A stretch of 43,075 nucleotides of DNA from Bdellovibrionales bacterium (GTDB taxonomy: Bacteria > Bdellovibrionota > Bdellovibrionia > Bdellovibrionales > UBA840). Every line of letters starts with the position of its first letter. The first letter of the stretch is position 1. Positions 2,888 through 40,465 of this stretch are shown here, one piece after another. The notes beneath the pieces are model-generated. The model did no database searches. It saw only the letters and a program-made list of their open reading frames with translations, and was not told the origin of the DNA. The DNA is taken from NCBI GenBank assembly GCA_037969075.1, contig JBBKWS010000120.1:1-43075 (forward strand), written 5' to 3'. Made by a program: the position numbers and the translations under genes.

Positions 2888-3931
2888 ATGGCTACATACT
2901 TAGACTCTAAAGGCATTGTGTTCTTACCCAGCATGGAGAACCTGCTACAATTACCAGATATCCACAGGGATATCGACAATCTGCTATGGATTGTGGATGA
3001 AAAAGTAGCTAAATTAAAAACCTTCACCAAAGCCCCACTGAAACACGTTTACTTTGTAAGTAGTGGTGAAAAATTAAAAGACATCGATCAGTTCCCACAA
3101 CATATCAAAAAGGTAATGCATCTAGCAGAAACCATCCCCACTAAAAAATTAAAAATAGTTGCGGTTGGCGGTGGCAGCGTTGGGGACTTTGCTGGTTTTA
3201 TCGCAAGCATACTGCGCAGAGGAGTTGATTTAATACATGTCCCTACCACATGGCTTGCTTGCATTGACAGCGCCCACGGCGGGAAGACAGCTTTAAATAT
3301 TGAAACATTCAAAAACCAAATTGGTACGTTTTATCCTGCGCAAAAAATTTATTTAGTAAAAGATATTCTTGGATCTCAACCTAATGAATTAAAAATAGAT
3401 GCGAATGCTGAATTATTTAAAATAGCACTCCTAAAGGGTGAAGCCTGGATGCCATCATTACTAAAAGATATTTCTAACTTAGACACAGCCTCAGTCTTTT
3501 GGCACTATGTACAACTGGCGATAGAGGCAAAATACTTTTATATCGAAGCAGATCCAAAAGAAATATTAGGCGTTCGTACCGAGCTAAACCTTGGACATAC
3601 GATGGCCCATATTTTAGAAAATAACTGCGGATTAAGACATGGCCAGGCCGTCGGCAAAGGATTACATTTTGCCTTAGCTTGGAGTCACAAAAAATACCAG
3701 TTAAAAGATGTAGAAGGGCTTCACTTAGCCTTAGAAGCTATGGGTCACAGTCGCACCCCTGTAAAAATAAAAGAAAAACAAATTCAATCAGGTTTAGCTC
3801 GTGACAAAAAATTGAGTGACAGAGATGTCTTGCGCTTTATATTTTTACGCTCCATCGGTGATGCCAAAGTCGAAGACGTCAGCTTTAGAGAGTTTATGGT
3901 ATTTGCATCCGAGCAAGGCTGGGTTTCTTGA
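2888..3931 (+). CDS. aroB: 3-dehydroquinate synthase
   Basis: GGGSVGDFAGF, PTTWLACIDSAHGGKT, KNQIG, LNLGHTMAH, HGQAV; start placed at ATG 2888 (alternative 2834) to avoid overlap with xth. Confidence 0.93.
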   Translation: MATYLDSKGIVFLPSMENLLQLPDIHRDIDNLLWIVDEKVAKLKTFTKAPLKHVYFVSSGEKLKDIDQFPQHIKKVMHLAETIPTKKLKIVAVGGGSVGDFAGFIASILRRGVDLIHVPTTWLACIDSAHGGKTALNIETFKNQIGTFYPAQKIYLVKDILGSQPNELKIDANAELFKIALLKGEAWMPSLLKDISNLDTASVFWHYVQLAIEAKYFYIEADPKEILGVRTELNLGHTMAHILENNCGLRHGQAVGKGLHFALAWSHKKYQLKDVEGLHLALEAMGHSRTPVKIKEKQIQSGLARDKKLSDRDVLRFIFLRSIGDAKVEDVSFREFMVFASEQGWVS

Positions 3932-5118
3932 AACCACGATTTCAATTTATTAATCCCATAGAATCTTCTAAATCTATTTATAATAGGCTTTTAATCTGTC
4001 AATCCTATTTTCCTGACTTAAAAATAGAAGGGCAAAGTAGTGCTGACGACGTAGTTAGTCTTAAGAAGGCTCTGCAGGATTTATCGCAAAAAGATTTTTA
4101 TATCGGTGACGGAGGAACCAGCTTTCGATTTTTGGCCCTTCGCCTTAGTAGATACCCCGGCACACACCGAATTCATTTAGGCGAGGCCCTGCAAAAACGA
4201 CAGCAAGATGATCTATTAAGTATACTTAAACAACTGAAAATAAACTTTTCGTTTGATCACAAAGTCTTAGAAGTGACTGGCGGAGATTGGAACCTAGAAA
4301 ACGAGATACTTGTGGATAAAACTATTTCTTCACAGTTTTTAACAAGCTTACTTTTAAACGCATGGCTTTTAGAAAAAGACTTACATATAAAATGTAGCGG
4401 TAGTGATTTATCCTCTTCGTACATTACAATGACAAAAAAATTATTATCCCAGCTCGGCCTTTTATTTACTGTTGATGGTGAGTCTATTATCGTTAAAAAG
4501 ATGCAAAAAATAAATGTAGAATCTATTAATTGTGAGATTGATATGAGCTCAGCATTTGTTGTTGCTGCCATTGGAGCCATAGCTGGTGGAGTTCGAATAT
4601 CTTCTTTCCCATTTCCTAGCTTGCAAGGCGATAGTATTTTTCTACAAATCTTACAGTTCATGGGTATTGTTTATAAAAAGCAGAAAGATGTTGTAGACAT
4701 TTTACCTTGCAACCAAGTTAGACCTATACAATTTAATCTTAAGGATGCTCCTGATCTATTTCCTGTTTTAGCAATGCTATGCGCTTTTTCTGATGGCAGT
4801 TCAAAACTTTTTGGAGCACCCCAATTAAAAAACAAAGAATCCAATCGAATCGAATCCATATCTAATCTACTAACTAAGATGAAAATTTCTCATGAGCGAT
4901 TAGAAGATGGCCTTATCATTCAAGGAAGTAGTTCTGTGAAGTTGACAGAGCCTACCGCGATTGAAACTTATGACGATCACAGGGTGGCATTTGCTGCAGC
5001 AGTAGCAAAAATGTATGGCTATCCGCTCATCATCCAAGGCGCGGACTGTGTTAATAAAAGCTTTCCTTCGTTTTGGTCTTACTTTCCAGAAAACTTTTCA
5101 ACCGAGGTTTACTCATGA
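3928..5118 (+). CDS. aroA: EPSP synthase (3-phosphoshikimate 1-carboxyvinyltransferase)
   Basis: SKS..NR, GGTSFRF, SSQF, PDLFP, KESNRI, DDHR, KSFP motifs; TTG start overlaps the aroB stop (TTGA). Confidence 0.93.
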   Translation: MKPRFQFINPIESSKSIYNRLLICQSYFPDLKIEGQSSADDVVSLKKALQDLSQKDFYIGDGGTSFRFLALRLSRYPGTHRIHLGEALQKRQQDDLLSILKQLKINFSFDHKVLEVTGGDWNLENEILVDKTISSQFLTSLLLNAWLLEKDLHIKCSGSDLSSSYITMTKKLLSQLGLLFTVDGESIIVKKMQKINVESINCEIDMSSAFVVAAIGAIAGGVRISSFPFPSLQGDSIFLQILQFMGIVYKKQKDVVDILPCNQVRPIQFNLKDAPDLFPVLAMLCAFSDGSSKLFGAPQLKNKESNRIESISNLLTKMKISHERLEDGLIIQGSSSVKLTEPTAIETYDDHRVAFAAAVAKMYGYPLIIQGADCVNKSFPSFWSYFPENFSTEVYS

Positions 5119-6863
5119 AATGGCTCTTGATAGGTCATAGAGGTACCGGAAAAACCTCACTCCTTAGACGCCTAACCTCCTATTTTCCCCACGTAGGTCA
5201 CTATGATCTGGATGAAGAAATTGCCAACCGAGTTGGGTGTAGCTTAGTAGAATATTTTAACAAACAAGGAGAGATCTCTTTTAGACAAATCGAATTGCAG
5301 ACTATTCGTGAAATCATGCAATCTAACTCTTCATACATCATAGCATGCGGTGCCGGTCTTTTATTGGATCAACTAACCACGGACGCAGAAAAAATTTGGA
5401 TCAGACGCTATACTGATAAATTAGGTCGTATTTTCTTAGATCGACCACGACTCCAAAAAGAAGCTCTGCCCTTAGATGAATATATGCACAGATACCGCGA
5501 ACGAAATATTATGTATCAAAAATACGCCACCGAAATTATCGATATACCCGAGGGATTTGATACACCAAACGAGGCCGAAAAAGATTTTTTTCAACAAACA
5601 TTTGATGTCAGTGAATGGACTGTAACCTTACAAGTTTACCATTTTAGAAGCCCAGAACAGATCAAAACTTATATAAGTAAGCGAGCAAGCTGGGGCCTTA
5701 AAATAGAACTTCGTGATGACCTCTTAACTAAAGAACAAATTCACCAAGCCGTACAATTAATCCCCATCGGGCAGGCACTAATTAGTTTTAGACAAAAACA
5801 TACGTCTCCGGACTTAGTTCAGTTTGTACAAAAAAATAATATAGCAAGTGATTGGGATCTTAATTTAGGAGAGCCGCCATTTGAAACTACCGTTGTTTCA
5901 TTACACCAATCAAAATCGCTCGAGGCTGGCTTAGACCAACTAGCAAAATATACTACGTCGATTCAGAAGGCTGCGTTTGAAGTTGAAAGCTTAGAAGATC
6001 TCTGGCTTGGTGATCAGTGGCTACTTCAAGCACCAAACAGAGCCTTCTTGCCCTGCTCTGACAATGGGCTGTGGAAATGGTACCGTCTTTACAGATCTCA
6101 CAAACAAGCGATACAGTTTTTAGCGGATCAAACGAATTCACAACTAGATCAGCCGCAACTTCTTGATGTGATCAGGCAACAAGATTTCGATGATACAAAT
6201 CACTTTGCCGCTGTGATTGGAAATCCCATTAACCATAGTTTAAGTCCTGGCAAACACTATGATTTTTTCTTACCATATCGCATTCCATTTTACCCCGTCC
6301 CATTAAAAACATGGAATATTCAAATTTTACAAAAACTTGGTTTACTATTTGCCGCCGTTACCTCTCCCTTTAAAGAAGATGCTTTTAAAACTGCGAGCGC
6401 GCTGTCAACTGATGCTGAAAAGTTAAAAAGCGTAAACACTCTCGTATTGAGTGATACAATTTATGGTTATAATACTGACGTGAGTGGACTAAAGGCGACT
6501 CTCGCCTACGCCAAAGGAATAACAGTTGTTTGGGGTGGTGGCGGGCTGCTCTCTTCTATCCAAGCAAACTTACCAAGTGCCTATGCCTATTCTTCACGAA
6601 CAGGAACTGCTAAAGGTGAGGAAATAACGACTTTTCCAGAAACACTAATCTGGGCTGTGGGAAGAACTCACTTTGAAGTGCAGGGCGTCTTTCCACCGTC
6701 AGACTGGAAGCCTAAAGTTATTATTGATATGAATTACACGGATGATTCCTACGGCAAGGCCTACGCACAAAGTATTCAGGCAGAATACATTTCAGGCATG
6801 ACTCTTTTTTTAGAACAGGCTAAGAAACAACAAGAACTTTGGGCCCCTAAAATACCTAGCTAG
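5115..6863 (+). CDS. Trifunctional shikimate kinase / type I dehydroquinase-like / shikimate dehydrogenase fusion (AroK-AroD-AroE)
   Basis: N-terminal P-loop GHRGTGKTS with DLDEEI and FRQIE (shikimate kinase); middle IELRDDLL, VVSLH, IQKAA (type I DHQase-like); C-terminal from ~6201 IGNPINHSLSP, VTSPFKE, VNT, NTD, DMNY, GMTLFLEQAKKQ (shikimate DH); ATGA overlap with the aroA stop. Confidence 0.85.
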   Translation: MKWLLIGHRGTGKTSLLRRLTSYFPHVGHYDLDEEIANRVGCSLVEYFNKQGEISFRQIELQTIREIMQSNSSYIIACGAGLLLDQLTTDAEKIWIRRYTDKLGRIFLDRPRLQKEALPLDEYMHRYRERNIMYQKYATEIIDIPEGFDTPNEAEKDFFQQTFDVSEWTVTLQVYHFRSPEQIKTYISKRASWGLKIELRDDLLTKEQIHQAVQLIPIGQALISFRQKHTSPDLVQFVQKNNIASDWDLNLGEPPFETTVVSLHQSKSLEAGLDQLAKYTTSIQKAAFEVESLEDLWLGDQWLLQAPNRAFLPCSDNGLWKWYRLYRSHKQAIQFLADQTNSQLDQPQLLDVIRQQDFDDTNHFAAVIGNPINHSLSPGKHYDFFLPYRIPFYPVPLKTWNIQILQKLGLLFAAVTSPFKEDAFKTASALSTDAEKLKSVNTLVLSDTIYGYNTDVSGLKATLAYAKGITVVWGGGGLLSSIQANLPSAYAYSSRTGTAKGEEITTFPETLIWAVGRTHFEVQGVFPPSDWKPKVIIDMNYTDDSYGKAYAQSIQAEYISGMTLFLEQAKKQQELWAPKIPS

Positions 6864-6870
6864 GAGACAT

Positions 6871-7920
6871 ATGTCAGCCAACTCATTTGGTAATATTTTA
6901 AAAATGATAAGCTTTGGAGAAAGTCACGGCAAAGCCCTCGGAGTTGTACTTGAAGGTGTGCCCGCAGGACTTAACGTAAATCACGAATTACTTCTTAAAA
7001 ATTTACAAAGACGTCGGCCCGGTAGTTCAAACATTGTTAGCGCCAGAGATGAATCCGATGTACCAGAAATTCTTAGTGGGGTCTTTGAAGGCAAGACCAT
7101 TGGTACTCCGATTTCAGCTATTGTTTATAATAAAGATGCAAAATCAGAAGATTATAATGCCATTAAAGATTCGCATAGACCAGGACACGCTGATGATGTG
7201 TGGAAAAATAAATTTGAACACTCTGATCATAGAGGCGGCGGCAGATCCTCTGGCCGCGAAACCGTAAGCCGAGTCATTGCTGGTTCATTTGCACAAATGA
7301 TCTTAAATGCTATCTCTCCTAAAAGCTCTGTTTTTGTTTTTTCAGAAAAAATTTTCACTTACTCTATTGGTGAACACTTGCCGCTTATACTTAAAAAATT
7401 AGATGGCATGACTCAATTTGAGGGACAAGATTGGATTGATTCTTTTCCTGCAAAATTTCCTGCCTTAGAAACTTCAAAGCAAATTGAACAACTTCTTTTA
7501 GCTGCCAAAGAACAAGGTAAGAGCTACGGAGGAAGTTTAATTGTTTACATAACGAATCCTCCGAAAAACTTAGGCCAACCTGTGTTTCATAAATTAAAAG
7601 CTGATCTTGCCTCAGCTTATTTAAGTATTGGAGCAACTAGCTCGTTTGAGGTTGGGATTTCTGATGCCAGTACACAAGAAGGAAGTCATTTTCATCAACA
7701 AGTATCCAGTGAGAAGTATGGCGGTATACGCGGCGGAATCTCAACCGGTGAGAATATGTTACTGCGTATTGGATTTAAACCAACATCTACTGTTCTAGAC
7801 ATAGCTAAAAAAGGACGCCATGACCCCTGCATTCTACCGCGCGCTTCAGTGGTTGTAGAGGCAATGACCAATTTAGTCTTAGCAGACCATACCTTATGGT
7901 CAAGGCTAGATAAGATTTAG
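6871..7920 (+). CDS. aroC: Chorismate synthase
   Basis: GESHG, RRRPG, RPGHAD, RGGGRSSGRET, GGISTG, FKPT, GRHDPC; SD AGGAG. Confidence 0.98.
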   Translation: MSANSFGNILKMISFGESHGKALGVVLEGVPAGLNVNHELLLKNLQRRRPGSSNIVSARDESDVPEILSGVFEGKTIGTPISAIVYNKDAKSEDYNAIKDSHRPGHADDVWKNKFEHSDHRGGGRSSGRETVSRVIAGSFAQMILNAISPKSSVFVFSEKIFTYSIGEHLPLILKKLDGMTQFEGQDWIDSFPAKFPALETSKQIEQLLLAAKEQGKSYGGSLIVYITNPPKNLGQPVFHKLKADLASAYLSIGATSSFEVGISDASTQEGSHFHQQVSSEKYGGIRGGISTGENMLLRIGFKPTSTVLDIAKKGRHDPCILPRASVVVEAMTNLVLADHTLWSRLDKI

Positions 7921-8024
7921 CCAATAATTACATGTACTTATGTGCATAAACTGATTACAGAAAAAAGATTCTAATCTTGCAAAAATTCTTGTTCTACAAA
8001 GCTTATACGAGTACAACATTAGTC

Positions 8025-9335
8025 ATGTCTGATCTAAGTAATATGTTTACGCAACTAATGAATGGCTTTTCTAAACTCAATATAACCGAGCGTTACCAGC
8101 GCTTGCTTGAGCTTGGCGCGCTTACAAAATCAGAAATTCAGTTTTTAAAATCTGGCGGCATAAAAGACAATGATTTAGCTGAACATTTAGTAGAAAATGT
8201 AATTGGCTACTTTCAATTACCCTTAGGCGTAGCTACAAACTTTAAAGTAAACAATAAAGATTATATTATTCCCATGGCAGTTGAAGAAACTTCTATTATC
8301 GCCGCCGCTTCTAAAACCGCAAAGTGGGTTCGAACAAACGGTAAGATTACCACCCGCTCTTTAGGAAAAAATATTATTGGGCAAATCCAAATTGCAAAAG
8401 CAAAGAATTTTGCAGCCAGTAAAGAACTTATTTTAAAAAACAAAGAACACTTAATTGCTATCGCTAACCAAGTCCTAAAAGGTCTTGTTGCTCGTGGTGG
8501 CGGAATACGTGATCTAGAAGTTCGCGAGCTTGACAGAGAAGATGGTACTAACGACAAGATGTTAGTCATCCACATCTACTGTGACCCATGCGAAGCCATG
8601 GGTGCAAACTTAATCAATCAAGCATGTGAAGCTTTAAAGCCGCAAGTAGAAAGTATTACAGGCGAAACTGTTAACCTTTGTATTTTGTCAAACCTTGTAG
8701 ACACAAAGCTTACAGAGGCTATCGTAGAAATTTATGATATCGATGAGTCTCTTGGAAGAGGCATAGAAGAGGCCTCTAGATTTTCCATTGTTGATCCATA
8801 CCGTGCTGCAACCAACAACAAGGGTGTTTTAAACGGGATTGATGCTGTTTTGATTGCTTGTGGAAATGACTGGAGAGCGGTAGAGGCAGGTATACACTCG
8901 TATGCTGCCAGAGATGGAAAATATAGATCTATTACTCAGTGGAAGCTTGAAGGAACAACCCTAGTAGGAAGATTAGTCGCACCTATTGTTGTAGGTACTG
9001 TCGGCGGAGTTACTAAAATTCATCCAACAGCACAATTAGGACTCCGTATGCTTGGAGTAACGAGCACTGAAGAACTAGCCGGAGTAATAGCTGCCGTTGG
9101 TTTGGTGCAAAACCTAGGCGCGCTAAAAGCTTTAAGCACTGTGGGTGTTGTTGAGGGTCACATGAAATTGCATGCCACTAACTTAGCACTTGCAGCTGGA
9201 GCTGGCCCCGAAGAAATTTTACCTGTGCAAATTGATTTACAGCATCTATTAGCTCGCGTAAAACGCATTACCTTAGAAGATGCCAGACAGATCCTTTTAA
9301 ATTACCGAAATAGCCGCAACGAAACTCAAGTATAA
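8025..9335 (+). CDS. mvaA: Class II hydroxymethylglutaryl-CoA reductase
   Basis: ENVIG, PMAVEETSIIAAAS, EAMGAN, NKGVLNGID, GNDWRA, GHMKLH; start uncertain (8025, 8043 or 8058). Confidence 0.93.
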   Translation: MSDLSNMFTQLMNGFSKLNITERYQRLLELGALTKSEIQFLKSGGIKDNDLAEHLVENVIGYFQLPLGVATNFKVNNKDYIIPMAVEETSIIAAASKTAKWVRTNGKITTRSLGKNIIGQIQIAKAKNFAASKELILKNKEHLIAIANQVLKGLVARGGGIRDLEVRELDREDGTNDKMLVIHIYCDPCEAMGANLINQACEALKPQVESITGETVNLCILSNLVDTKLTEAIVEIYDIDESLGRGIEEASRFSIVDPYRAATNNKGVLNGIDAVLIACGNDWRAVEAGIHSYAARDGKYRSITQWKLEGTTLVGRLVAPIVVGTVGGVTKIHPTAQLGLRMLGVTSTEELAGVIAAVGLVQNLGALKALSTVGVVEGHMKLHATNLALAAGAGPEEILPVQIDLQHLLARVKRITLEDARQILLNYRNSRNETQV

Positions 9336-9425
9336 TTTTTCACGCTTTCATATTTTGCAACTAGAAGCTTCGCAGCAATAGACCCATAGATAAAAATATG
9401 TTAGCAATATCGCACGGAGGAACTC

Positions 9426-10391
9426 ATGTATATCATCACTGGTGCCGCAGGCTTCATAGGAAGCGCAATGATCTGGGAGCTAAATGAAAAAGGCATCCAT
9501 GACATACTATGTGTCGATGACTTCGAATCTACAAACAAATGGAAGAATTTAGTTAAAAGAAGATTCAGTGAGTTTATCCCTAAAAATGAACTTTTTGTGT
9601 ACTTAGAAGATATGGACCCTAAAGACATAACTGCAGTTATACATTTTGGTGCCTGCTCATCTACCACTGAAAAAGATATGGATTTTTTATATTTCAATAA
9701 TTATATGTATTCTCAACAGTTAGCAAACTACTGTAGCGATAATGATATACCTTTCGTGTACGCATCAAGTGCTGCTACTTACGGCCTTGGTGAAAAAGGT
9801 TTCTCGGATGAGAGCTCTTCTTATGACCTCACTCCACTTAATCCATATGGTTACTCAAAAGTTTTATTTGATCGATGGATGGAAGACCAAAAGCTTTCAA
9901 CTAAATGGGCGGGTTTAAAATTCTTTAACGTTTATGGTCCGCAAGAATACCACAAAGGCGATATGACTAGCCTTGTTTACAAGGCATTCACTCAAATACA
10001 AGAGACCAGTTCTTTAAAACTATTTCGCTCGCAAGATCCAAAATACAAAGACGGTGAGCAAATGCGGGACTTTGTATACGTCAAAGATATCACAAGGTGG
10101 ACATGGCAGATTTTGCAAAAATGGCCAAAGTCAGGAATCTATAATATGGGTTTTGGAAAAGCACAGACATGGCTGCAACTTGCTGATGCTATCTTTGCAG
10201 CAGTTGGTAAAAAGACTCAAATTGAGTGGATTGATATGCCCGATTCTGTTGCCAAACAGTATCAGTACTTTACAGAAGCAAATATGAAAAAGTTAAGAAG
10301 CCAGGATATTGGCACTGCCGACTGGCCGATTGAAAAAGGCGTAGCTGATTATATTAAAAATTTCTTATTAAAGAATGAATCTTATTTATGA
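9426..10391 (+). CDS. hldD: ADP-L-glycero-D-manno-heptose 6-epimerase
   Basis: ITGAAGFIGS, HFGACSSTTE, YASSAATYG, PLNPYGYSK, FFNVYGPQEYHKG, YQYFTEA; SD GGAGG. Confidence 0.96.
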   Translation: MYIITGAAGFIGSAMIWELNEKGIHDILCVDDFESTNKWKNLVKRRFSEFIPKNELFVYLEDMDPKDITAVIHFGACSSTTEKDMDFLYFNNYMYSQQLANYCSDNDIPFVYASSAATYGLGEKGFSDESSSYDLTPLNPYGYSKVLFDRWMEDQKLSTKWAGLKFFNVYGPQEYHKGDMTSLVYKAFTQIQETSSLKLFRSQDPKYKDGEQMRDFVYVKDITRWTWQILQKWPKSGIYNMGFGKAQTWLQLADAIFAAVGKKTQIEWIDMPDSVAKQYQYFTEANMKKLRSQDIGTADWPIEKGVADYIKNFLLKNESYL

Positions 10392-12145
10392 CAACATTTA
10401 GTGAAATACCCAGCCATCTAAAGCAGTACATAGCCACGCAAAGTAGTGACGAGTACACGCCCGTACAACATGCGACCTGGAGATTTATTTTACGACAACT
10501 AAAAGTTTTTTTACAAGAACACGCTCACCCTTTTTACTTAGAAGGCATGAAAAAATCAGGCATTGAAGTAGAAAAAATACCCAGCATCAGTGAAATCAGC
10601 TCTAACCTTGCAGATTATGGCTGGCGTTGCGTACCAGTTAGCGGCTTTCTACCTCCAGCTGCTTTTATGGAATTGCAGGCAATGGGCTATCTTCCTATTG
10701 CTAAGGAGATCAGAGGTGTGCACCACATTCCTTACACTCCAGCACCAGATATTGTACATGAAGCTGCGGGACATGCCACATACCTTCCGCACCCTGACTT
10801 TGCAAATTACTTACATAACTACGCGCAAATCTCAAAAAAATGTATTATCAGCAGCGAAGATTTTTCTGTCTATCAGGCTATTCGTGAATTATCAGACGTA
10901 AAAGAAAACCCTGGATCTACTGAAGCTCAAATAGCAACTGTAAATAAAAATTTAGAAACTGCTATTGCCAATGTTACCTATGTTTCAGAGGCCACCAAGG
11001 TAAGCAGACTTTACTGGTGGACTGCTGAGTATGGATTAATTGGTAGTATAAAAAATCCTAAAATTTATGGAGCAGGAATATTATCTTCTATTAGCGAGAG
11101 TAAAAACTTTTTATCTGATAGTGTTAAAAAAATACCACTGTCTATTGAATGTATAGATTATGCATTTGATATCACCGAAGAGCAGCCGCAACTCTTTGTT
11201 GCCAAGAACTTTTCTCACTTAAATAAAGTCTTATCCGAAATGGGTTCCACCTTTAGTTTTAAAGTGGGCGGCGAAAAAGGCTTAAGTGAAGCTAAAAAAG
11301 CAAAAACTGTAAATACCATAGAGCTAAACTCTGGTCTTCAGATGTCAGGAAAACTTGTTGATTACAAAGTAAAGGATTTAAAGCCGTATTACATTCGCTT
11401 AGAGGGGCCTAGCCAGCTCTGTTTTGACGACAGACAGTTACCTGGGCACGGCAAAGACTATCATAAGGATGGATACTCTACGATTATAGATACCATTGTC
11501 GGTAATGACTCTTGCATATCCACTTTAGATATGAAGGGTCTACACGATTTGGGATTTCAATCAGGAAAAATCTGCGACATTCAATTTACTTCAGGTGTTT
11601 GTCTAAAAGGTATTCTCACCGAGATCTTTCAAAAAAATGGTAGAAATTTATTATTTACATTTAAAGACTGTACCGTCACTCAAGAAGATGAGGTATTGTT
11701 TAAGCCCGAATGGGGGACCTTTGATTTGGGAGTAGGAACGTTTGTTAATTCAGTTTTTGGTGGGCCCGCCGACCACGCCGCGTACGGGGAAACCGAAAAT
11801 TTTAAGGCTGTAGCTATTCCTACCCTAAAACCTACCGAAAAAGAAAAAAGATTATTTTTGCAATACAATAAGGTTGCAGATGTAAGAAGAGCTTTTTTGA
11901 CAAAAAAATTAAGTGTCCGGACCTTAGAAGAAAGATGCGAAGATCTTTATAAAGTTATTTCTCGGGATTTTTCTACAGACTGGCTTTTACAAGTTGAGCT
12001 GCTAGAGCTCTCTTACCAATTTTCTACTCCTCCAAAGTGGCAATCACAAATCACTACTAATTTAGCAAGTGCCGGCGAATTATATCCAGATTTAAAGTTA
12101 CATATCCTAAACAGCATTAAACTTGCACCCGAATTGGTTATATGA
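10388..12145 (+). CDS. phhA: Aromatic amino acid hydroxylase (phenylalanine 4-monooxygenase), long ~585-aa form
   Basis: YTPAPDIVHEAAGH iron-binding motif, LYWWTAEYGL, IYGAGILSSISE, QPQLFV, plus a C-terminal extension of about 290 aa. Confidence 0.92.
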   Translation: MTTFSEIPSHLKQYIATQSSDEYTPVQHATWRFILRQLKVFLQEHAHPFYLEGMKKSGIEVEKIPSISEISSNLADYGWRCVPVSGFLPPAAFMELQAMGYLPIAKEIRGVHHIPYTPAPDIVHEAAGHATYLPHPDFANYLHNYAQISKKCIISSEDFSVYQAIRELSDVKENPGSTEAQIATVNKNLETAIANVTYVSEATKVSRLYWWTAEYGLIGSIKNPKIYGAGILSSISESKNFLSDSVKKIPLSIECIDYAFDITEEQPQLFVAKNFSHLNKVLSEMGSTFSFKVGGEKGLSEAKKAKTVNTIELNSGLQMSGKLVDYKVKDLKPYYIRLEGPSQLCFDDRQLPGHGKDYHKDGYSTIIDTIVGNDSCISTLDMKGLHDLGFQSGKICDIQFTSGVCLKGILTEIFQKNGRNLLFTFKDCTVTQEDEVLFKPEWGTFDLGVGTFVNSVFGGPADHAAYGETENFKAVAIPTLKPTEKEKRLFLQYNKVADVRRAFLTKKLSVRTLEERCEDLYKVISRDFSTDWLLQVELLELSYQFSTPPKWQSQITTNLASAGELYPDLKLHILNSIKLAPELVI

Positions 12146-15324: not shown

Positions 15325-16425
15325 ATGCTATTAATTATATTTACTCTACATCTTTTTACATTTGCTGACTCTGTCGACAATATACAGAGCGGAAAATATA
15401 CTGATGAAGCAAAGTGTACTCTTTGTGGCGGTAGAATACTCTGTGGCGCACTCAGTGAAAGTGTACCACTAGAAGATTTTAATACTATAAACACTAAACC
15501 TATACTTAACTTTTGCTTTTTAAAAACCTCTGAATTAAAAGCCGCAAGCAGACAACATAAAGCTTGGGCCAGTGAAGAGTTATTGCGCTTTCAGAAAATC
15601 TCTGGTGTTGTTGAAAAAATTTCTACACAAAGTAGTCGTAGTAAATACACAAACGAAGTAGTGCCTACCCTCAAAGAAAAAATCACAGCCAGAGTAAATT
15701 ACAGATTAGAGAATGGGTTTAAACTTAGTGAGATGAAGGCCGCTTTAGGAAAAGATAATTACGCTAAGTGGGAGAGCGAAAACCTAATACTACCTCTATT
15801 ATCATTTGAATCTTATGCTCAGATAAAAGGAAGAGATAAAAATTCTTACTACGACTATGTCGAAACTCTTTTTGTTTCTAATACAGAGAATATTCAAATA
15901 GAATCTAATGCCTATGCATTTTATTACGAAGGTACAACCAACAACAATCGACTCGTGGCCAGTAAAGCCCCTGTTAGCACATTGACAAAAGAGGACCTTA
16001 AAAAGCCTTACGACTACTACAATTTAACTGACGTAGATTCATTTTTAGAAAAAATAAAACTATTACCGCAAGAATTTTGCGAAAAAAATGTATATAAAAA
16101 CATTAGACAAGCTAGCATGACGAGTCTTAATAAGTTAGTGGAAGAGTATGGCGGGGACACTAATTTTGATAAAGCATATTATTATAAACTTCTAAAAAAA
16201 GATTTTTTAGCTACCATTGATAGCGGTGATTGCAGCTCTAAAATGTCTTCTTTTTTGCAAACTAAAATTAGCGCGTTGCCAAACCCTGCATTATTGCAAA
16301 AGATACTGAAAATCGAAAGCCCACCTGCGGACAGAAAGCCAAGCTCTGAACAAATCGACAAGAGAAAACCCGTTTTTTGCGAATTTAACATTGATAATTA
16401 TCAAGACAGCTGCAATAGAAAATAA
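15325..16425 (+). CDS. Hypothetical, probably secreted protein (366 aa)
   Basis: Short hydrophobic N-terminus ending TFA-D; several cysteines; no recognised domain. Confidence 0.75.
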   Translation: MLLIIFTLHLFTFADSVDNIQSGKYTDEAKCTLCGGRILCGALSESVPLEDFNTINTKPILNFCFLKTSELKAASRQHKAWASEELLRFQKISGVVEKISTQSSRSKYTNEVVPTLKEKITARVNYRLENGFKLSEMKAALGKDNYAKWESENLILPLLSFESYAQIKGRDKNSYYDYVETLFVSNTENIQIESNAYAFYYEGTTNNNRLVASKAPVSTLTKEDLKKPYDYYNLTDVDSFLEKIKLLPQEFCEKNVYKNIRQASMTSLNKLVEEYGGDTNFDKAYYYKLLKKDFLATIDSGDCSSKMSSFLQTKISALPNPALLQKILKIESPPADRKPSSEQIDKRKPVFCEFNIDNYQDSCNRK

Positions 16426-19082: not shown

Positions 19083-19796
19083 ATGGGACAGGTACCTGAT
19101 AGCAATAAAATTTTAATCATTGGCAATGGCAAGTTAGCAAGCCATTGGATGCATTATCACAACCTCTTAAATATTCCGTTTACACATTGGTTTCGTAAAT
19201 CAAAAAAAACTCTCAAGCCGGATATTTTTAGGACAGTTTATTTAGCCGTCACTGATTCAGCTATCCCTAACTTATTAATACAAAATCCTTGGCTACAAGA
19301 TTCAAACATCGTTCATTTTTCAGGAGCCAACTATTTTGATGGCACGTATGGTATACACCCGCTTATGACTTTTTCTGAGGATCTATATGACCTCGAAACA
19401 TATACATCTATTCCCCTTGCTATAGATTTTTCGCCAGCATCTTTTACTGAAAATTTTCAATATTTAAAGAACCCCTGTTGGCATATACCCCCAGAGAAGA
19501 AAGCTAAGTACCATGCACTTTGCGTAATGAGTGGCAACTTCCCACAAATATTATGGCAAAGTATTGAGCTTGAAATTAAAGCGTTAGGTTGCCCGGTTGA
19601 TGGATGGAAAAATTATATCATGCAATCTACGAAGAATTTCTTGCAAGACTCTAATAGTTTGACGGGTCCAATTGCTCGCAAGGACCTCTCTACAATTAAA
19701 AAAAATATCTCTGCATTGAATGGGTCCCTCTTACAAAAAATTTATACAGAATTCTGCAAGCTTAAACTAATTGAGGTAGAAAATGAAAATCACTGA
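19083..19796 (+). CDS. panG: Rossmann-like/DUF2520 protein, probable PanG-type ketopantoate reductase
   Basis: IIGNGKLA, LAVTDSAI, HFSGA, HPLMTF, YHALCV, LTGPIARKD; first gene of a pan operon that lacks panE. Confidence 0.8.
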   Translation: MGQVPDSNKILIIGNGKLASHWMHYHNLLNIPFTHWFRKSKKTLKPDIFRTVYLAVTDSAIPNLLIQNPWLQDSNIVHFSGANYFDGTYGIHPLMTFSEDLYDLETYTSIPLAIDFSPASFTENFQYLKNPCWHIPPEKKAKYHALCVMSGNFPQILWQSIELEIKALGCPVDGWKNYIMQSTKNFLQDSNSLTGPIARKDLSTIKKNISALNGSLLQKIYTEFCKLKLIEVENENH

Positions 19797-20571
19797 TTTT
19801 TTAAAATACAAAGAAACAAAAAAACAAATTTCAATGATGACGGTTTATGACACTAGTTTTGCTAGAATATTAGAAGCCACTGACATTGACGTTGTTTTAG
19901 TGGGAGATAGCCTTGCAATGACTATGCACGGATATGAATCAACCATCCCCGCAACAATGGAGATGATGGCCCTACACACTTCTGCCGTGGCAAAAGCCAT
20001 TAAAAATAAATTCATAGTCGCTGACCTCCCATTTATGTCTTTCAGAAAAGGCTTCGATACTTTAATGACGAATGCAGATATTTTGATGAGAGCTGGAGCT
20101 CATGCCGTAAAATTAGAGGGTGCTACTGGAAACCTAGAAAATATATCCCACCTAGTTAATTCAGGAGTGCCTGTCATGGGACACTTAGGTTTAACACCGC
20201 AGTTTATAAACTTATTTGGTGGCTGGAAAGTACAGGGGAAAACTGATGATGCAAAAGATCAAATCCTTAAAGAAGCCTTTGCATTACAGAGCGCGGGTTG
20301 TTTTAGCTTAGTGCTTGAGTGTGTACCTGAGGCCCTGGCAACTACTATATCTAAAGAGCTAAAAATTCCATGTATCGGGATCGGTGCAGGCTCTAATGTG
20401 GACGGGCAAGTTCTTGTCTTACAAGATCTATTAGGAATGAATCCAAGCTTTAAACCTAAGTTTGTAAGATCTTATCTGAATGGCTTTGATCTTATTAAAA
20501 ATGCAGTTAATAGCTATGTTGCCGATGTGAACACAAAAGAATTTCCCAATAAGGATGAGTCGTATTTATGA
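19783..20571 (+). CDS. panB: 3-methyl-2-oxobutanoate hydroxymethyltransferase
   Basis: LVGDSL, DLPFMS, VKLEG, HLGLTPQ, LECVP, IGIGAG, DGQVLV. Confidence 0.98.
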   Translation: MKITDFLKYKETKKQISMMTVYDTSFARILEATDIDVVLVGDSLAMTMHGYESTIPATMEMMALHTSAVAKAIKNKFIVADLPFMSFRKGFDTLMTNADILMRAGAHAVKLEGATGNLENISHLVNSGVPVMGHLGLTPQFINLFGGWKVQGKTDDAKDQILKEAFALQSAGCFSLVLECVPEALATTISKELKIPCIGIGAGSNVDGQVLVLQDLLGMNPSFKPKFVRSYLNGFDLIKNAVNSYVADVNTKEFPNKDESYL

Positions 20572-21329
20572 AAATATTTAAGTCGTTAAGCCAATTTAAA
20601 GATTGGCGAGCAACATACACGGGTAAAATAGGACTAGTACCTACCATGGGAGCTTTGCATGAGGGACACCTGACATTAGTGCATGAAGCAAAAAAGACTT
20701 GTGATTATGTTATCGTTAGTATTTTTGTAAATCCAACTCAGTTCAACAACCCAAATGATTTAAAAAAATACCCAAGAACACTTGAAACTGATTCTGTATT
20801 ACTAAAAAGTGTAGGCACAGATGCCGTCATACTACCTACCTATGAAGACATTTACCCAGACGACTTTCGCTTCAAAGTAACCGAAACAACACTAAGCGCG
20901 CAGTATTGTGGAGCACATAGACCCGGTCATTTTGACGGAGTATTAACCATAGTTCTAAAGCTATTGAATATTACTAAGCCAACACAGGCTTTTTTTGGAG
21001 AAAAAGATTATCAGCAATATAAACTCATAGAGCAAATGACTGCCGCTCTTTTTTTAGATGTAAAAATCACTGGCGTAGCTACCGTTAGAGAAGCAGATGG
21101 ATTAGCGATGAGTTCTAGAAACTTATTACTATCTCCTAGTGACAGGGCGCGCGCTCCATTATTACATAAAATTATATCAAAAGCTAAAACCACTGACGAA
21201 GCAAAACAGCAACTCGCAAAAGAAGGCTTCGCTGTGGATTATGTAGACGATTTTGAAGGAAGAAGACTTGCAGCCGCTACAATCAGCGACGTTAGACTTA
21301 TTGACAACGTGGAGCTTAATTATGAGTAA
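20568..21329 (+). CDS. panC: Pantoate-beta-alanine ligase
   Basis: VPTMGALHEGH, SIFVNPTQF, RPGHFDGV, FGEKDYQQ, DGLAMSSRN, RLIDN. Confidence 0.98.
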   Translation: MKIFKSLSQFKDWRATYTGKIGLVPTMGALHEGHLTLVHEAKKTCDYVIVSIFVNPTQFNNPNDLKKYPRTLETDSVLLKSVGTDAVILPTYEDIYPDDFRFKVTETTLSAQYCGAHRPGHFDGVLTIVLKLLNITKPTQAFFGEKDYQQYKLIEQMTAALFLDVKITGVATVREADGLAMSSRNLLLSPSDRARAPLLHKIISKAKTTDEAKQQLAKEGFAVDYVDDFEGRRLAAATISDVRLIDNVELNYE

Positions 21330-21864
21330 AAAAGTATTATTTTTCTTAAGCGGATCCATTGCGGGCTTTAAAGCCTGCCAAGTAATATCTGATTTAAAAA
21401 AGAAGGACCTTGAGGTTCAGGTAGTAGCCTCAGCTTCAGCTCTTGAATTTATAGGAAAAGCAAGCCTAGAGGGACTTAGTGGTAAACCCGTGATCACTTC
21501 ATTATTTCAAGAAAGTCACATGATGGATCACATTCATTTGATGAGATGGGCTGAAACGCTTGTTGTTTGCCCAGCGACTGCAAATACAATCAATCAATTT
21601 GCAAGTGGAACTGGTGATTCAATTTTAACAACATTTTTCTTAGCTTATGACTTTAAAAAACCGTTCTTGGTCTTTCCCGCAATGAACACATCGATGTATG
21701 AACACCCTGTAACAGCAAAATCCATAACCAGCTTAAAAGAAATGGGGTTGAAAATTTTTGACACTAACGAAGGGAATCTAGCCTGCGGAGAAATTGGGGC
21801 TGGACGCATGCTTGAACCCAATGAAATTACGAAATTAATCTTTGAATCATTGGAGATAGGGTGA
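21322..21864 (+). CDS. coaC: Phosphopantothenoylcysteine decarboxylase (stand-alone CoaC)
   Basis: SGSIAGFKA, HIHL, PATANT, PAMNTSMYEHP, LACGEIGAGRM; ATG at 21322 overlaps the panC end. Confidence 0.92.
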   Translation: MSKKVLFFLSGSIAGFKACQVISDLKKKDLEVQVVASASALEFIGKASLEGLSGKPVITSLFQESHMMDHIHLMRWAETLVVCPATANTINQFASGTGDSILTTFFLAYDFKKPFLVFPAMNTSMYEHPVTAKSITSLKEMGLKIFDTNEGNLACGEIGAGRMLEPNEITKLIFESLEIG

Positions 21865-22514
21865 AAATTTTAATCACGCTTGGCGGCACTAAAGAGCCCA
21901 TTGATTCAGTTCGCTATATTGGCAACAGCAGTAGTGGGAAAACCGGAAGAATTATTGCCGATACATTTATAAAGAATAAATCCTCTGTCACATGTCTAAA
22001 AGCTAAAGGCATCACAGACATTGATGGTGCCACTAATATTGATTACTATACATTTGCAGACCTAGAATCAGTTTTAATCGAAGAAATAAGCATAAAACAT
22101 TACGATGCAGTCATTCACGCCGCAGCTGTCAGCGATTATAGAGTTAATAAAGTGATAAATGATTCTAGCGAAACAGCATCTGTAGGTGGAAAAATACGGT
22201 CAGGACAGCAGCTAAAATTAATCTTAGAACCAACACCAAAGCTTATTGATAAAATCAAAGGTGCCTCTAAAAATAAAGATTTAATACTTATAGGGTTTAA
22301 ATTAACCGAATCCGCTAGCATGCAAGAAAAAATGGACGCTGTTTTAAAAATATTTACTTCAGGCGCAAAAATTGTGGTGCAAAATGACTTAACAGAAATC
22401 TCTGATGAAAATCATATTTGCCAAATATTTATGAATCCCCAAGAAAAAGTAGTTACAAGTACAAAACAAGAATTGGCAGATAGACTTTATTACATGACCA
22501 AGGAACTCATATGA
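21861..22514 (+). CDS. coaB: Phosphopantothenate-cysteine ligase (stand-alone CoaB)
   Basis: [44 protein letters not shown] start with GTGA overlap and GGAGA SD. Confidence 0.9.
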
Positions 22515-23281
22515 TACTTTGTTTAGACGTAGGAAATAGCCAAATTTATGGCGGTGTATATTGCGACGATGAAATCAAACTTCGCTTTAGACATAACACC
22601 AATTACGCAACATCCTCGGATGAGATTGGCTTATTTTTAAAAACGGTTATCAAAGAAAACGATATTGACCCCACCGAAATAACTAATATTGCCATCTGCT
22701 CTGTGGTTCCGCAGGTCGTGTACTCTTTAACCAATGCTTGTAAAAAATATTTTAAAATTAATCCTTTTTTACTACAAGCCGGTGTTAAAACAGGGTTAAA
22801 AATTAACTATAGAAATCCTGTGGAAGTTGGCGCCGATAGAATAGCAAATTCAATTGCCGCGACTCAAATGTATCCCAATCAAAATTTAATTGTGGCTGAT
22901 TTTGGAACTGCAACCACACTGTGCGTGATCACAAAAAATAAAGACTACCTTGGCGGAGTTATTATTCCTGGAATTAGGATTTGCATGGAATCATTAGAAA
23001 TGAAAACAGCAAAACTCCCCTCTGTTGAGATTATTAAACCTAAAAGTATCGTGGGTAGATCTACGGTAGAAAGCATTCAATCGGGTTTGTACCACAGTCA
23101 TTTGTACGGTATTAGAGGTATGATTGAACAAATTAAAAAAGAACATTTTAAAAATGAAGAAGTAACTTTAATAGGTACAGGCGGATTTTCAAGACTTTTT
23201 GAAGACGACAATCTATTTCATAAAATTCACCCTGATTTAGTATTACAGGGTTTATTTTACGCACTTAAATCAAATATATAG
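22511..23281 (+). CDS. coaX: Type III pantothenate kinase
   Basis: [37 protein letters not shown]. Confidence 0.97.
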
Positions 23282-23665: not shown

Positions 23666-25171
23666 TTACCGTATCCCCTGGTGCGCTTGATAAATATTAG
23701 AGACATGCCCCTTTAATTTTTTAATGTGGGTACTCCACTCGACTGCATAAACCGCAACAGGGGTGCTTAGACCGCCCTGTAGGACGATTTTATGTAGGTG
23801 CTTTCTAATTTCACTTAGTTCAATTGCCAACTGCATCGAAGTTTTTGCAGGCCTAGTGTCTCTTTCAAAAAAACCTTTATTTTGAAGCTCATCAAAAACT
23901 AGTTCGTAATAAAGCACTGTCTTTTCAAGATAATCTTTCATCTTTTGATGGTACTCTTCACTCTCCTTTAAAGTTTCTACGTGGGCTAGCATCTTAAATA
24001 GTGTAATGCAGCTGTCGGCCATACTCTCTAACTCACTAGATATTCTAAGGATTGCTCTAAGTTTTTCAGACGCATACGCCGACATCTGATAACACATTAA
24101 ACGTTCTGAGAAATGAATGATCTCGGATTGCATATTGTCGGTGATTTTTTCATATTTCTGCAACTTCTTCTCTACTGATATGTCATGCGCCTCGATTGAA
24201 AATGCTGATCTAACCTGCTCAAGCATGGTTAATACAAGAGCCGCTTTCTTTTTTGTCTCTAAAAATAATAGCTCTGCAAAATATGAAACATGATACATCC
24301 CAATTGGTTCAATCCAAAGTAATGCCTTGGCTTCTTTGTGATTTTTTTCTGAGATTAAAGCTTCAGCCAGTTTCTGATAGAGCGGATATAGGACTGTAGA
24401 AATTATAATTATTGAAAAAGCATACGCATATGAAATCCAGAGTTCAAAATTTATTATAAGGTACGAAATAGGCAAAAGTAAGGTCCATATAATAAACGCT
24501 GAGCACACAATCCGTTTCTGCTGCGAGTTACCAGATTTAGCTGAAAATATTCTATACATAAGTAGTGAGAATATAGAAACACCTAGAGACAGCAGTAAAA
24601 AAGACACCGGCACCTTTAAGAGAGCAAAAACGAAAGGCCAAAATATAAACGATGGAAAAACTAGCGGAAAGAGCAATAGCCAGTACATCTGATCTTCTAG
24701 AGGAAATAAATTTGCCGAAAAGAATCTAAGAACCAGAAAGAATAACAATGTAAGGAAAAAAGTTTTTATCCATGGACGCAACTTAGGAATCGGAAACAAA
24801 ATGGCAATCGGTAGAAAGTAGTAAAATGGCACTTGATCAAACAAATGATTAATCTGTGTCATAAATAAATTGATCAATAGCACAACAAACAATCCGCCAG
24901 TCCAAAGGGCAATAAAATCTTTCACCTTTAAATAGCCAGTATTTGTCATAATTAATAAATGTGATAAAAATGAATCAAAACTAACATGGGTGATTGAAAT
25001 CCACGCCCCCAAAAGAGTGTTCTTAATAGCGCTTTGGCCAATATAGTTTATATATTTATTCGCAGTTGAAAATACAACAGTCTGGTATTGTTTTTGTAGG
25101 ACATGATAAAAGAAATAGCCGCCCAACAAATAAATACTGTAATTAAAAATGTGTATCCAAAACTCTTTCAT
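23666..25171 (-). CDS. Na/Pi cotransporter-like membrane protein with a C-terminal PhoU-like helical domain (divergent)
   Basis: Multi-TM N-terminal region of about 265 aa; C-terminal helical region with YEKITDNMQSEI and ELESMAD resembling PhoU repeats. Confidence 0.6.
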   Translation of the reverse strand: MKEFWIHIFNYSIYLLGGYFFYHVLQKQYQTVVFSTANKYINYIGQSAIKNTLLGAWISITHVSFDSFLSHLLIMTNTGYLKVKDFIALWTGGLFVVLLINLFMTQINHLFDQVPFYYFLPIAILFPIPKLRPWIKTFFLTLLFFLVLRFFSANLFPLEDQMYWLLLFPLVFPSFIFWPFVFALLKVPVSFLLLSLGVSIFSLLMYRIFSAKSGNSQQKRIVCSAFIIWTLLLPISYLIINFELWISYAYAFSIIIISTVLYPLYQKLAEALISEKNHKEAKALLWIEPIGMYHVSYFAELLFLETKKKAALVLTMLEQVRSAFSIEAHDISVEKKLQKYEKITDNMQSEIIHFSERLMCYQMSAYASEKLRAILRISSELESMADSCITLFKMLAHVETLKESEEYHQKMKDYLEKTVLYYELVFDELQNKGFFERDTRPAKTSMQLAIELSEIRKHLHKIVLQGGLSTPVAVYAVEWSTHIKKLKGHVSNIYQAHQGIR

Positions 25172-39334: not shown

Positions 39335-40465
39335 ATGAAGTTACTTAAAACAGTAGGAGTCCTAAGCTTGTTATTGGCCACAGCTTGTAACGAGGGCGGA
39401 ACAGAGATCGAAGGAGTTAACATTAATCCCGAGAGCTACTTTGATGTGAACACATTCTCTTTAAACAAATTAGTCTGTGATCCTTTTGGCGGTGGCGGTA
39501 ACCCAGCTGCAAACGGAGGGTTAAAAGCTAATCTCTATTATTTAGAAGATGGTTCAAACCCACTTTCACATGTTGCAGATTATTTTACGACAGGTATAAA
39601 ATCTGATAAAATCATGTTCTTCTCACAAATCAATGTGCCAACAAGGCTATTTAACTTAGGTTTCCCTACAGCAACTGGTGGCACAATTACAAAAGATAAT
39701 GGCGAAGCTTTAGTTGAAAACTTCGCACTTGATATTGAGACGGTAATTAAACTGGGCCCTAATGATGAACCAGGTCTTTATGAGCTAGCGCTACTATCAG
39801 ATGATGGATCAGTATTACAAGTTCGTGACGCTGGTACTTATGTCACCGTTGTTGATAATGATGGAACTCATCCAACAAAGTTTGGTTGTGCTAGCCGCTC
39901 AATACAAATGGGCGCCGATGATTCTTATTTAGCAAAGATCCATTATTATCAAGGTCCAAGAGATCATATATCAGTGATCCCTATGTGGAGAAAAATTACT
40001 GACGAAAGCCAAGTTGGTACTGACTCTAGCTGTGGTCAACAAGGTAACTCTATGTATTTTGACTACAATAATAACTCAGAGCCAAAGGCTGCTTACAATG
40101 GCCTACTTGCACGCGGATGGAAGCCGTTAAATGCCGACAACTATGAGTTGCCAAACTCTATACCTATAAACCCATGTGTAAATGGCGAAGCACCAATTAT
40201 CACTAATATAAGTGTACGCGATATGTATGATGGGCAAATTCAGGTGATTTGGAATACAGATATTCCGGCGACCGCTCAGGTGCGAGTAGTAAATATGGAT
40301 AATGGCCAAGAAATTCTAACTTACAGTGATAACGTCTTGAGAAGTGAGCATGAAGTATTCGTACAAGGCCTACAACGTCAGGTTAACTACATGATCCAAG
40401 CAGTGTCGGTATCAGATACTTACGGTAAGACTTTGAGCTATGCGTATAACTTAAGAATTGAGTAA
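39335..40465 (+). CDS. Lipoprotein with a PA14-like domain and a C-terminal FN3-like domain
   Basis: LATA-C lipobox; ENFALD..GLYELALLSDDGS..DNDGTH..YYQG (PA14-like); IWNTDIPATAQV..EHEVFVQGL..YMIQAVS (FN3-like); SD AGGAG. Confidence 0.8.
   Translation: MKLLKTVGVLSLLLATACNEGGTEIEGVNINPESYFDVNTFSLNKLVCDPFGGGGNPAANGGLKANLYYLEDGSNPLSHVADYFTTGIKSDKIMFFSQINVPTRLFNLGFPTATGGTITKDNGEALVENFALDIETVIKLGPNDEPGLYELALLSDDGSVLQVRDAGTYVTVVDNDGTHPTKFGCASRSIQMGADDSYLAKIHYYQGPRDHISVIPMWRKITDESQVGTDSSCGQQGNSMYFDYNNNSEPKAAYNGLLARGWKPLNADNYELPNSIPINPCVNGEAPIITNISVRDMYDGQIQVIWNTDIPATAQVRVVNMDNGQEILTYSDNVLRSEHEVFVQGLQRQVNYMIQAVSVSDTYGKTLSYAYNLRIE

Follow-up and report, generated by a model that had tools for sequence, protein, structure and literature searches.

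The AROM (Aro1) protein of fungi and protists (PDB 6hqv, 7u5s, 7tbv, and 5swv) joins five activities of the shikimate pathway in one polypeptide, in the order 3-dehydroquinate synthase (DHQS; AroB), 5-enolpyruvylshikimate-3-phosphate (EPSP) synthase (AroA), shikimate kinase (AroK), type I 3-dehydroquinase (AroD), and shikimate dehydrogenase (AroE). Richards et al., in 2006, reportedly treated AROM as an old eukaryotic fusion. Here, we describe a bacterial aro operon with the same order on a contig of 43,075 nucleotides (nt), referred to in full as the window, from a Bdellovibrionales bacterium (GenBank assembly GCA_037969075.1, contig JBBKWS010000120.1). The operon, aroB-aroA-aroKDE-aroC, is predicted to cover steps 2 to 7 of the pathway, and its third gene encodes AroK, a predicted AroD, and AroE as a single protein (K-D-E). 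Its AROM-like order probably arose in parallel with that of the eukaryotic protein.

Several described systems share part of this arrangement. In Aro1, the shikimate kinase-dehydroquinase-dehydrogenase module, which tilts against the DHQS-EPSP synthase part and equals the K-D-E gene product, is described in PMC9074039. In the plant DHQ-SDH protein (Arabidopsis, 2gpt), a type I dehydroquinase likewise precedes shikimate dehydrogenase, but the plant protein has no kinase domain and is about 20% identical to the fusion. Bacterial partial fusions (AroK-AroB, PRK13951/PRK14021; AroD-AroE, PRK09310) also join neighboring aro genes; the K-D-E protein differs from them in having three domains, in K-D-E order, and in scoring far below the cut-offs of those families. 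Monofunctional type I AroD (2egz, 2ox1, and 1sfj; PF01487) shares its TIM-barrel fold and its catalytic His/Lys pattern with the middle domain of the fusion, which is 13 to 17% identical to it and lies between AroK and AroE. A literature search of titles and abstract openings found no account of a bacterial K-D-E protein or of the present operon, although the architecture could already appear in subscription papers that deal with shikimate fusions of prokaryotes.

The original prediction, made from sequence alone, read the locus as DHQ synthase, EPSP synthase, and then an AroK-AroD-AroE triple fusion. Open reading frames (ORFs), Pfam matches, and fold matches all agree with this order, so that B-A-K-D(type I)-E runs across aroB, aroA, and aroKDE as it does in AROM. 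The five predicted AROM-type activities are spread over three ORFs here rather than one, with stops at 3929-3931 (the TGA of aroB) and 5116-5118. The top sequence matches include the AROM structures 7tbv and 7u5s. The aroB start (ATG 2888) is backed by a corresponding Met in a relative (L001, 78% identical); its product also matches TIGR01357 at an E value of 1e-62, which is under that model's cut-off. The closest solved structures to the aroA product are EPSP synthases. The chorismate synthase gene aroC, which had been overlooked in the earlier description, is likely the last gene of the operon, and it is usually the next gene after the fusion in related loci as well.

The outer two domains of the fusion protein are readily recognized. 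Both the kinase and the dehydrogenase domains exceed Pfam cut-offs (SKI at residues 9-143 and Shikimate_dh_N at 367-443), although the dehydrogenase does not attain the NCBIfam aroE cut-offs. Residue invariance was scored on an alignment of 113 homologues that lack the AroA fusion described below. The kinase has a Walker A motif, GHRGTGKT, and K13, D33, R57, E60, and R130 are invariant in 113/113 homologues, as are G79 and G81. In the dehydrogenase, S375, T416, K420, N441, D455, and Q568 are likewise invariant in 113/113, together with G474 of the Rossmann glycine loop. A triple fusion in one polypeptide is supported.

The middle domain required a different approach. The Pfam check that recovered the outer domains gave no match to DHquinase_I (PF01487) at E<=1, and this family was also absent among the 25 of 82 Pfam families shown for 80 homologues. 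The Atlas annotation gave DHquinase_I at just 0.80 to 0.81, below the Atlas reliable range. We base the type I assignment on fold and residues rather than on Pfam. A model of the whole fusion protein (pLDDT 96.7, pTM 0.93) was compared against 48,161 structure chains. The top match of the middle domain was 2egz (Z 15.1, rmsd 2.8 over 184 amino acids [aa]), with further matches to 2ox1 (Z 14.2), 3l9c (13.8), 5swu (13.1), and 1sfj (13.1); seven type I dehydroquinase entries (Z 15.1 to 12.2) outrank all other TIM barrels (<=11.1). E198, R200, R226, D246, S262, H264, K285, R324, D345, and Q346 are invariant among the 113 homologues and align with the corresponding motifs of Klebsiella AroD. Five of these (E198, R200, R226, R324, and Q346) we take to be the substrate-binding Glu/Arg/Gln residues. 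The His/Lys catalytic dyad of type I dehydroquinases is described in PMC9074039. Compared by profile with AROM-type AroD, the middle domain scored P 50.7% with an E value of 1.6e-4, against <0.4% for four control domains, and 8 of the 113 homologues matched the AROM-type AroD profile at E<0.01.

Genome content is consistent with this assignment. The source genome (90% complete) has no match to PF01487 (type I) or PF01220 (type II), and PF01487 had 0 matches in the phylum families f1, f2, f3, f13, and f22. A type II dehydroquinase is found in 0/5 single-contig genomes that carry the fusion versus 5/5 genomes of family f19, which lack the fusion. One could suppose that the middle domain has lost its dehydroquinase activity or taken on another role, like that of Candida albicans Aro1, with another enzyme performing the step. 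The domain does fall below Pfam detection, its loops are shorter than those of AroD, and inactive AROM dehydroquinase domains are known (PMC9074039). However, H264 and K285 are kept in 113/113 homologues, and no other enzyme was found in the source genome (type I or II) or in the five single-contig relatives (type II); we consider this explanation very unlikely. The middle domain is likely an active, divergent type I dehydroquinase, judging from sequence and the predicted model, and the earlier reading of a type I DHQase-like region stands despite the missing Pfam match.

If so, the operon would encode the following route. AroB would supply dehydroquinate to the middle TIM barrel, where K285 would form the Schiff base for its dehydration and H264 would serve as the catalytic His. 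Reduction of the dehydration product to shikimate would fall to the C-terminal domain and phosphorylation of shikimate to the N-terminal kinase domain, and AroA and AroC would complete the route to chorismate. The coordinates of these features are collected in Table 1.

TABLE 1 Features of the aro operon in the window
Feature	Position	Strand	Details
aroB, 3-dehydroquinate synthase	2888..3931	+	347 aa; PF01761 E 1.8e-29, PF24621 (DHQ_synthase + DHQS_C)
TTGA stop/start overlap, aroB/aroA	3928..3931	+	sequence
aroA, short class I-like EPSP synthase	3928..5118	+	396 aa, TTG start 3928; PF00275 E 8e-47
ATGA stop/start overlap, aroA/fusion gene	5115..5118	+	sequence; GAGG at 5104-5107
aroKDE, AroK-AroD-AroE fusion gene	5115..6863	+	582 aa, start ATG 5115
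Shikimate kinase domain	5115..5600	+	residues 1-162; SKI (PF01202) E 2.5e-15, over cut-off; 2iyq Z 17.5
Predicted type I 3-dehydroquinase domain	5610..6194	+	residues about 166-360; fold and residues, no Pfam match
Shikimate dehydrogenase domain	6198..6863	+	residues 362-582; PF08501 E 8e-10, over cut-off; 2hk9 Z 20.5
aroC, chorismate synthase	6871..7920	+	PF01264 E 2e-94; 7 nt downstream of fusion gene

The K-D-E fusion, a predicted trifunctional enzyme, is real and class-wide. A profile of the fusion matched 84 of 301 genomes of the phylum at E<=2e-99, and a four-domain (A-K-D-E) query found matches at 1e-70 in 325 of the 390 genomes of the class; a single scan of genome contigs for the fusion returned one locus. 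The synteny survey proposed earlier was carried out on 62 loci (60 hand-picked from matched genomes, plus L001 and the window). The order was B-A-KDE in 42 loci and B-AKDE in 4, so that 46/62 keep the AROM order. Among the other 16, 7 have aroB beside the fusion gene with no intervening aroA, 7 have the fusion gene without aroB or aroA in the stretch, and 2 are otherwise arranged or cut. Loci in which aroB directly adjoins the fusion gene are L055, L067, L069, L073, L076, L082, and L084. In one genome (G086), an aroA of the type found in bacteria with the fusion (hereafter the lineage) lies on a separate contig (L352). No relative of the K-D-E fusion was found on viral contigs, and the rows listed for the plasmid collection included no D-E or K-D-E fusion.

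The two gene junctions had been offered as a hint of AROM kinship, on the argument that one added nucleotide at each would yield a single AROM-like protein. Both 4-nt overlaps are present in the sequence and the frame arithmetic is correct. Both segments are 2 mod 3, and one extra base per junction unites the frames into about 1325 aa, the summed length of the three products, against 1551 to 1589 aa in AROM. Since such joining holds for any 4-nt overlap, it carries little weight. Overlaps of this kind are also commonplace in the source genome, in which 154 of 902 close same-strand ORF pairs permit one by a crude count, and we rejected them as evidence of kinship. Among related loci, the 4-nt overlap is conserved at the A|K junction (31/43 scored loci) and occurs at the B|A junction in 17/47 (a nearest-start estimate). 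The overlaps likely couple translation and, because the genes abut, single small mutations could fuse neighbors, as seen repeatedly at A|K and also at B|A in a sister family.

Relatives bear out the capacity of these junctions to fuse, as they contain both AroA-K-D-E and AroB-AroA proteins. AroA is joined to K-D-E in 6 of the 120 proteins listed and in 6 of 7 long matches. Ten of 150 places listed (572 matches in all) span the whole A-K-D-E query in one frame with no stop, and all 6 of these that were checked were confirmed. On an unrooted tree of 75 rows, 17 of them fused, the AroA-fused state requires five changes, at least three of which are forced by starred branches. The fused forms make up small groups interspersed with unfused ones, a pattern more simply explained by repeated gain; from these sequences, AroA appears to have joined the trifunctional protein about five times, in separate lineages. 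At the other junction, genus g74 of family f19 has an AroB-AroA frame of 736 to 752 aa after aroC in six genomes, one of which was confirmed with Pfam. Taken together, these data are best read as a lineage-wide trifunctional enzyme with repeated fusion toward the AROM order, likely by convergence.

Further fusions are found elsewhere in the phylum. The genomes with the AroB-AroA loci (L375-L380 and L382-L384) use a type II dehydroquinase. Family f34 has an AroD-AroE-AroA fusion of about 890 to 910 aa followed by aroK (L102:7238-9904 [+], L107). AroE-AroK fusions are found in other families (L103-L105, L109, L119, and L120), in the orders B-D-EK-A-C or A-EK-B-C. We also observed a 788-aa protein with EPSP synthase and chorismate synthase domains (P0291) and a 535-aa frame (L114:5044-6648 [-]) whose C-terminal AroE lies behind a region that, by eye, is RibF-like (FAD synthetase/riboflavin kinase).

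To place the operon relative to AROM, we built trees for each domain. One set of AROM rows was drawn from metagenome contigs in which an AROM motif occurred (118 stretches, of which 80 had flanks); we treated these as eukaryotic on the strength of their architecture and apparent introns rather than their labels. A second AROM set included 9 loci of the viral collection, 7 of which bear the name GVMAG. For the bacterial background, we used 19 named loci of the plasmid collection together with viral-collection loci and other families of the phylum. The rows were thinned with diversity and run time in mind, and we dropped partial domains and duplicates as well as some long rows. A PF00275 search of the phylum was also tried as a source of AroA rows and set aside, as many of its matches scored poorly on AroA profiles, were likely MurA, and added little.

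AroA gave the clearest result. In the first AroA trees, the lineage fell outside the class I group containing AROM. Once f19 rows were added and shorter-branched members selected, the lineage, f19, and one f34 row grouped at 98/97, with AROM four nodes away, nested among rows of Actinobacteria, Proteobacteria, and Bacteroidota. A clade of the lineage plus AROM was rejected by the approximately unbiased (AU) test (p 0.0017), and rejected weakly when phylum relatives were added to that clade (p 0.038). The quick AroB tree also groups the lineage with phylum rows, and the lineage is nested inside the AROM rows in no tree. As far as these trees indicate, one domain argues against kinship with AROM, and the other four are neutral. 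The original prediction had suggested a partly fused relative of the AROM ancestor or a fissioned AROM. The first suggestion is not favored by AroA, which groups with phylum relatives and away from AROM, and the B, K, D, and E trees do not settle it. Recent fission is unlikely, as the fused forms occur in several groups set apart from one another by unfused forms.

Predicted geometry points the same way. The D-E pose of the model superposes on plant DHQ-SDH (399 aa, 3.3 A) and not on AROM, from which the domain poses differ by an rmsd of 17.7 to 19.2 A; the trees were built without plant sequences. With three genes in place of one, a much more diverged dehydroquinase, and an AroA that does not group with AROM, the locus is laid out like a split AROM with the same predicted chemistry, yet we do not count it as a member of the AROM family. 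Convergence is more likely than descent from an origin shared with AROM.

Several observations weigh against convergence. The exact match in the order of five domains is a real coincidence that needs explanation, and the K-D-E unit corresponds to the mobile C-terminal module of AROM described in PMC9074039. For AroA, the AU test run without f19 did not reject the shared clade (p 0.14), and the second set of AroA tests was named after the trees had been inspected. For AroB, the tree constrained to join AROM scored 9.5 log units above the quick free tree (p-AU 0.68), and both careful trees are polytomies. The constrained AroK tree was 3.75 log units better (p 0.65). The AroE shared clade had AU p values of 0.19 and 0.26, and the sister grouping of the lineage with f19 dropped from 88 in the quick tree to 50/65 in the careful one. 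The AroD tree, with six non-AROM background rows, is a polytomy with a very long stem. All branches of the lineage are long, and the background is thin, without Planctomycetota, Acidobacteriota, Chlamydiota, Myxococcota, archaea, or plants. Finally, the D-E pose rests on a predicted model and may echo known structures.

These points leave some room for common origin. It is rather unlikely that the cluster that formed AROM has a surviving prokaryotic relative in this operon, in which case the K-D-E module and the B-A-K-D-E order would predate eukaryotes. A related account holds that B-A-K-D-E is an old operon layout, that AROM and the operon both derive from a bacterial K-D-E cluster, and that single genes such as aroA were later replaced in one line. 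The identical order, the failure of AroB, AroK, and AroE to reject a shared clade, and the AroD polytomy all fit this account, as does an AroK tree in which 16 other bacterial kinases are separated (92) from AROM, the lineage, and two f34 rows. Yet no tree contains a supported clade of this kind, the predicted D-E geometry is unlike that of AROM, and the same phylum also shows B-D-EK-A-C, A-EK-B-C, D-E-A, and B-A orders or fusions; we regard this account as unlikely.

Direct gene transfer fares worse in either direction. Were a member of the lineage the donor of the eukaryotic AROM gene, the four-domain A-K-D-E proteins would stand one overlap short of the five-domain form, and the constrained AroB and AroK trees do outscore the quick free trees. 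However, both later AroA tests reject such a clade, and AroD has moved much farther from AROM than have ordinary type I enzymes, on a stem of >3 changes per site. The five-domain form itself was not seen in the lineage: there was none among 7 matches from 7999 long candidates, the longest frame was 1115 aa among 150 of the 572 matches listed from 390 class genomes, and none occurred in the 4/390 and 11/401 genomes that passed AROM-profile thresholds, with two candidates scored per genome. A donor from this lineage is distinctly improbable. The reverse, in which the lineage acquired a eukaryotic or giant-virus AROM gene that then split twice, could draw on the gene order, the tight junctions, and the compact single-ORF AROM genes on contigs labeled giant virus, but the lineage never nests within AROM rows, the fused forms are scattered among unfused ones, and AroA groups with phylum relatives. 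We find this origin extremely unlikely.

The AROM genes on contigs labeled giant virus are themselves of note. Complete five-domain single-ORF genes are found on AT-rich contigs in IMG/VR, several of them GVMAG (L123-L125 and L127-L129); P0129 and P0255-P0286 were listed alongside. Their neighbors include a uracil-DNA glycosylase, a deoxynucleotide kinase, a NUMOD4 protein, and an Atg22-like transporter. On one 160-kb GVMAG contig, an 862-aa fusion of prephenate dehydratase, prephenate dehydrogenase, and aminotransferase (L127:1766-4351 [-]) lies beside the AROM gene. Excerpts of PMC8005611 list other shikimate genes in giant-virus genomes and do not mention AROM.

Elsewhere in the source genome, there are two PF00793 matches and two chorismate-binding genes, and a profile search for MqnA gave no match. 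The PF00793 family also includes KDO8P synthase. Downstream of aroC, the window encodes an HMG-CoA reductase, then an epimerase and an aromatic amino acid hydroxylase of 585 aa whose C-terminal part is long (7977-12145 [+]). A compact pantothenate/CoA cluster follows at 19083-23278 (+), with a DUF2520 protein, panB, panC, a split coaBC, and a type III pantothenate kinase. Three ORFs of 366 to 501 aa (15325-16422, 23669-25171, and 39335-40462) have no Pfam match at 1e-8.

The K-D-E enzyme fills an annotation gap in a class of predatory bacteria that seemed to have no dehydroquinase, an activity that is likely hidden in databases within a protein labeled shikimate kinase or shikimate dehydrogenase. 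The phylum also provides a natural series of one- to four-domain versions in AROM order, so that the cause of fusion becomes testable: channeling, stoichiometry, or a neutral process in which overlapping genes are read through. If the operon were a surviving relative of the cluster that gave rise to AROM, the assembly of AROM would become traceable and could be rebuilt stepwise, with Bdellovibrionota retaining the A+KDE and B+A fusion steps. Should deeper trees link any domain to AROM, the operon would bear on the origin of the eukaryotic shikimate pathway.

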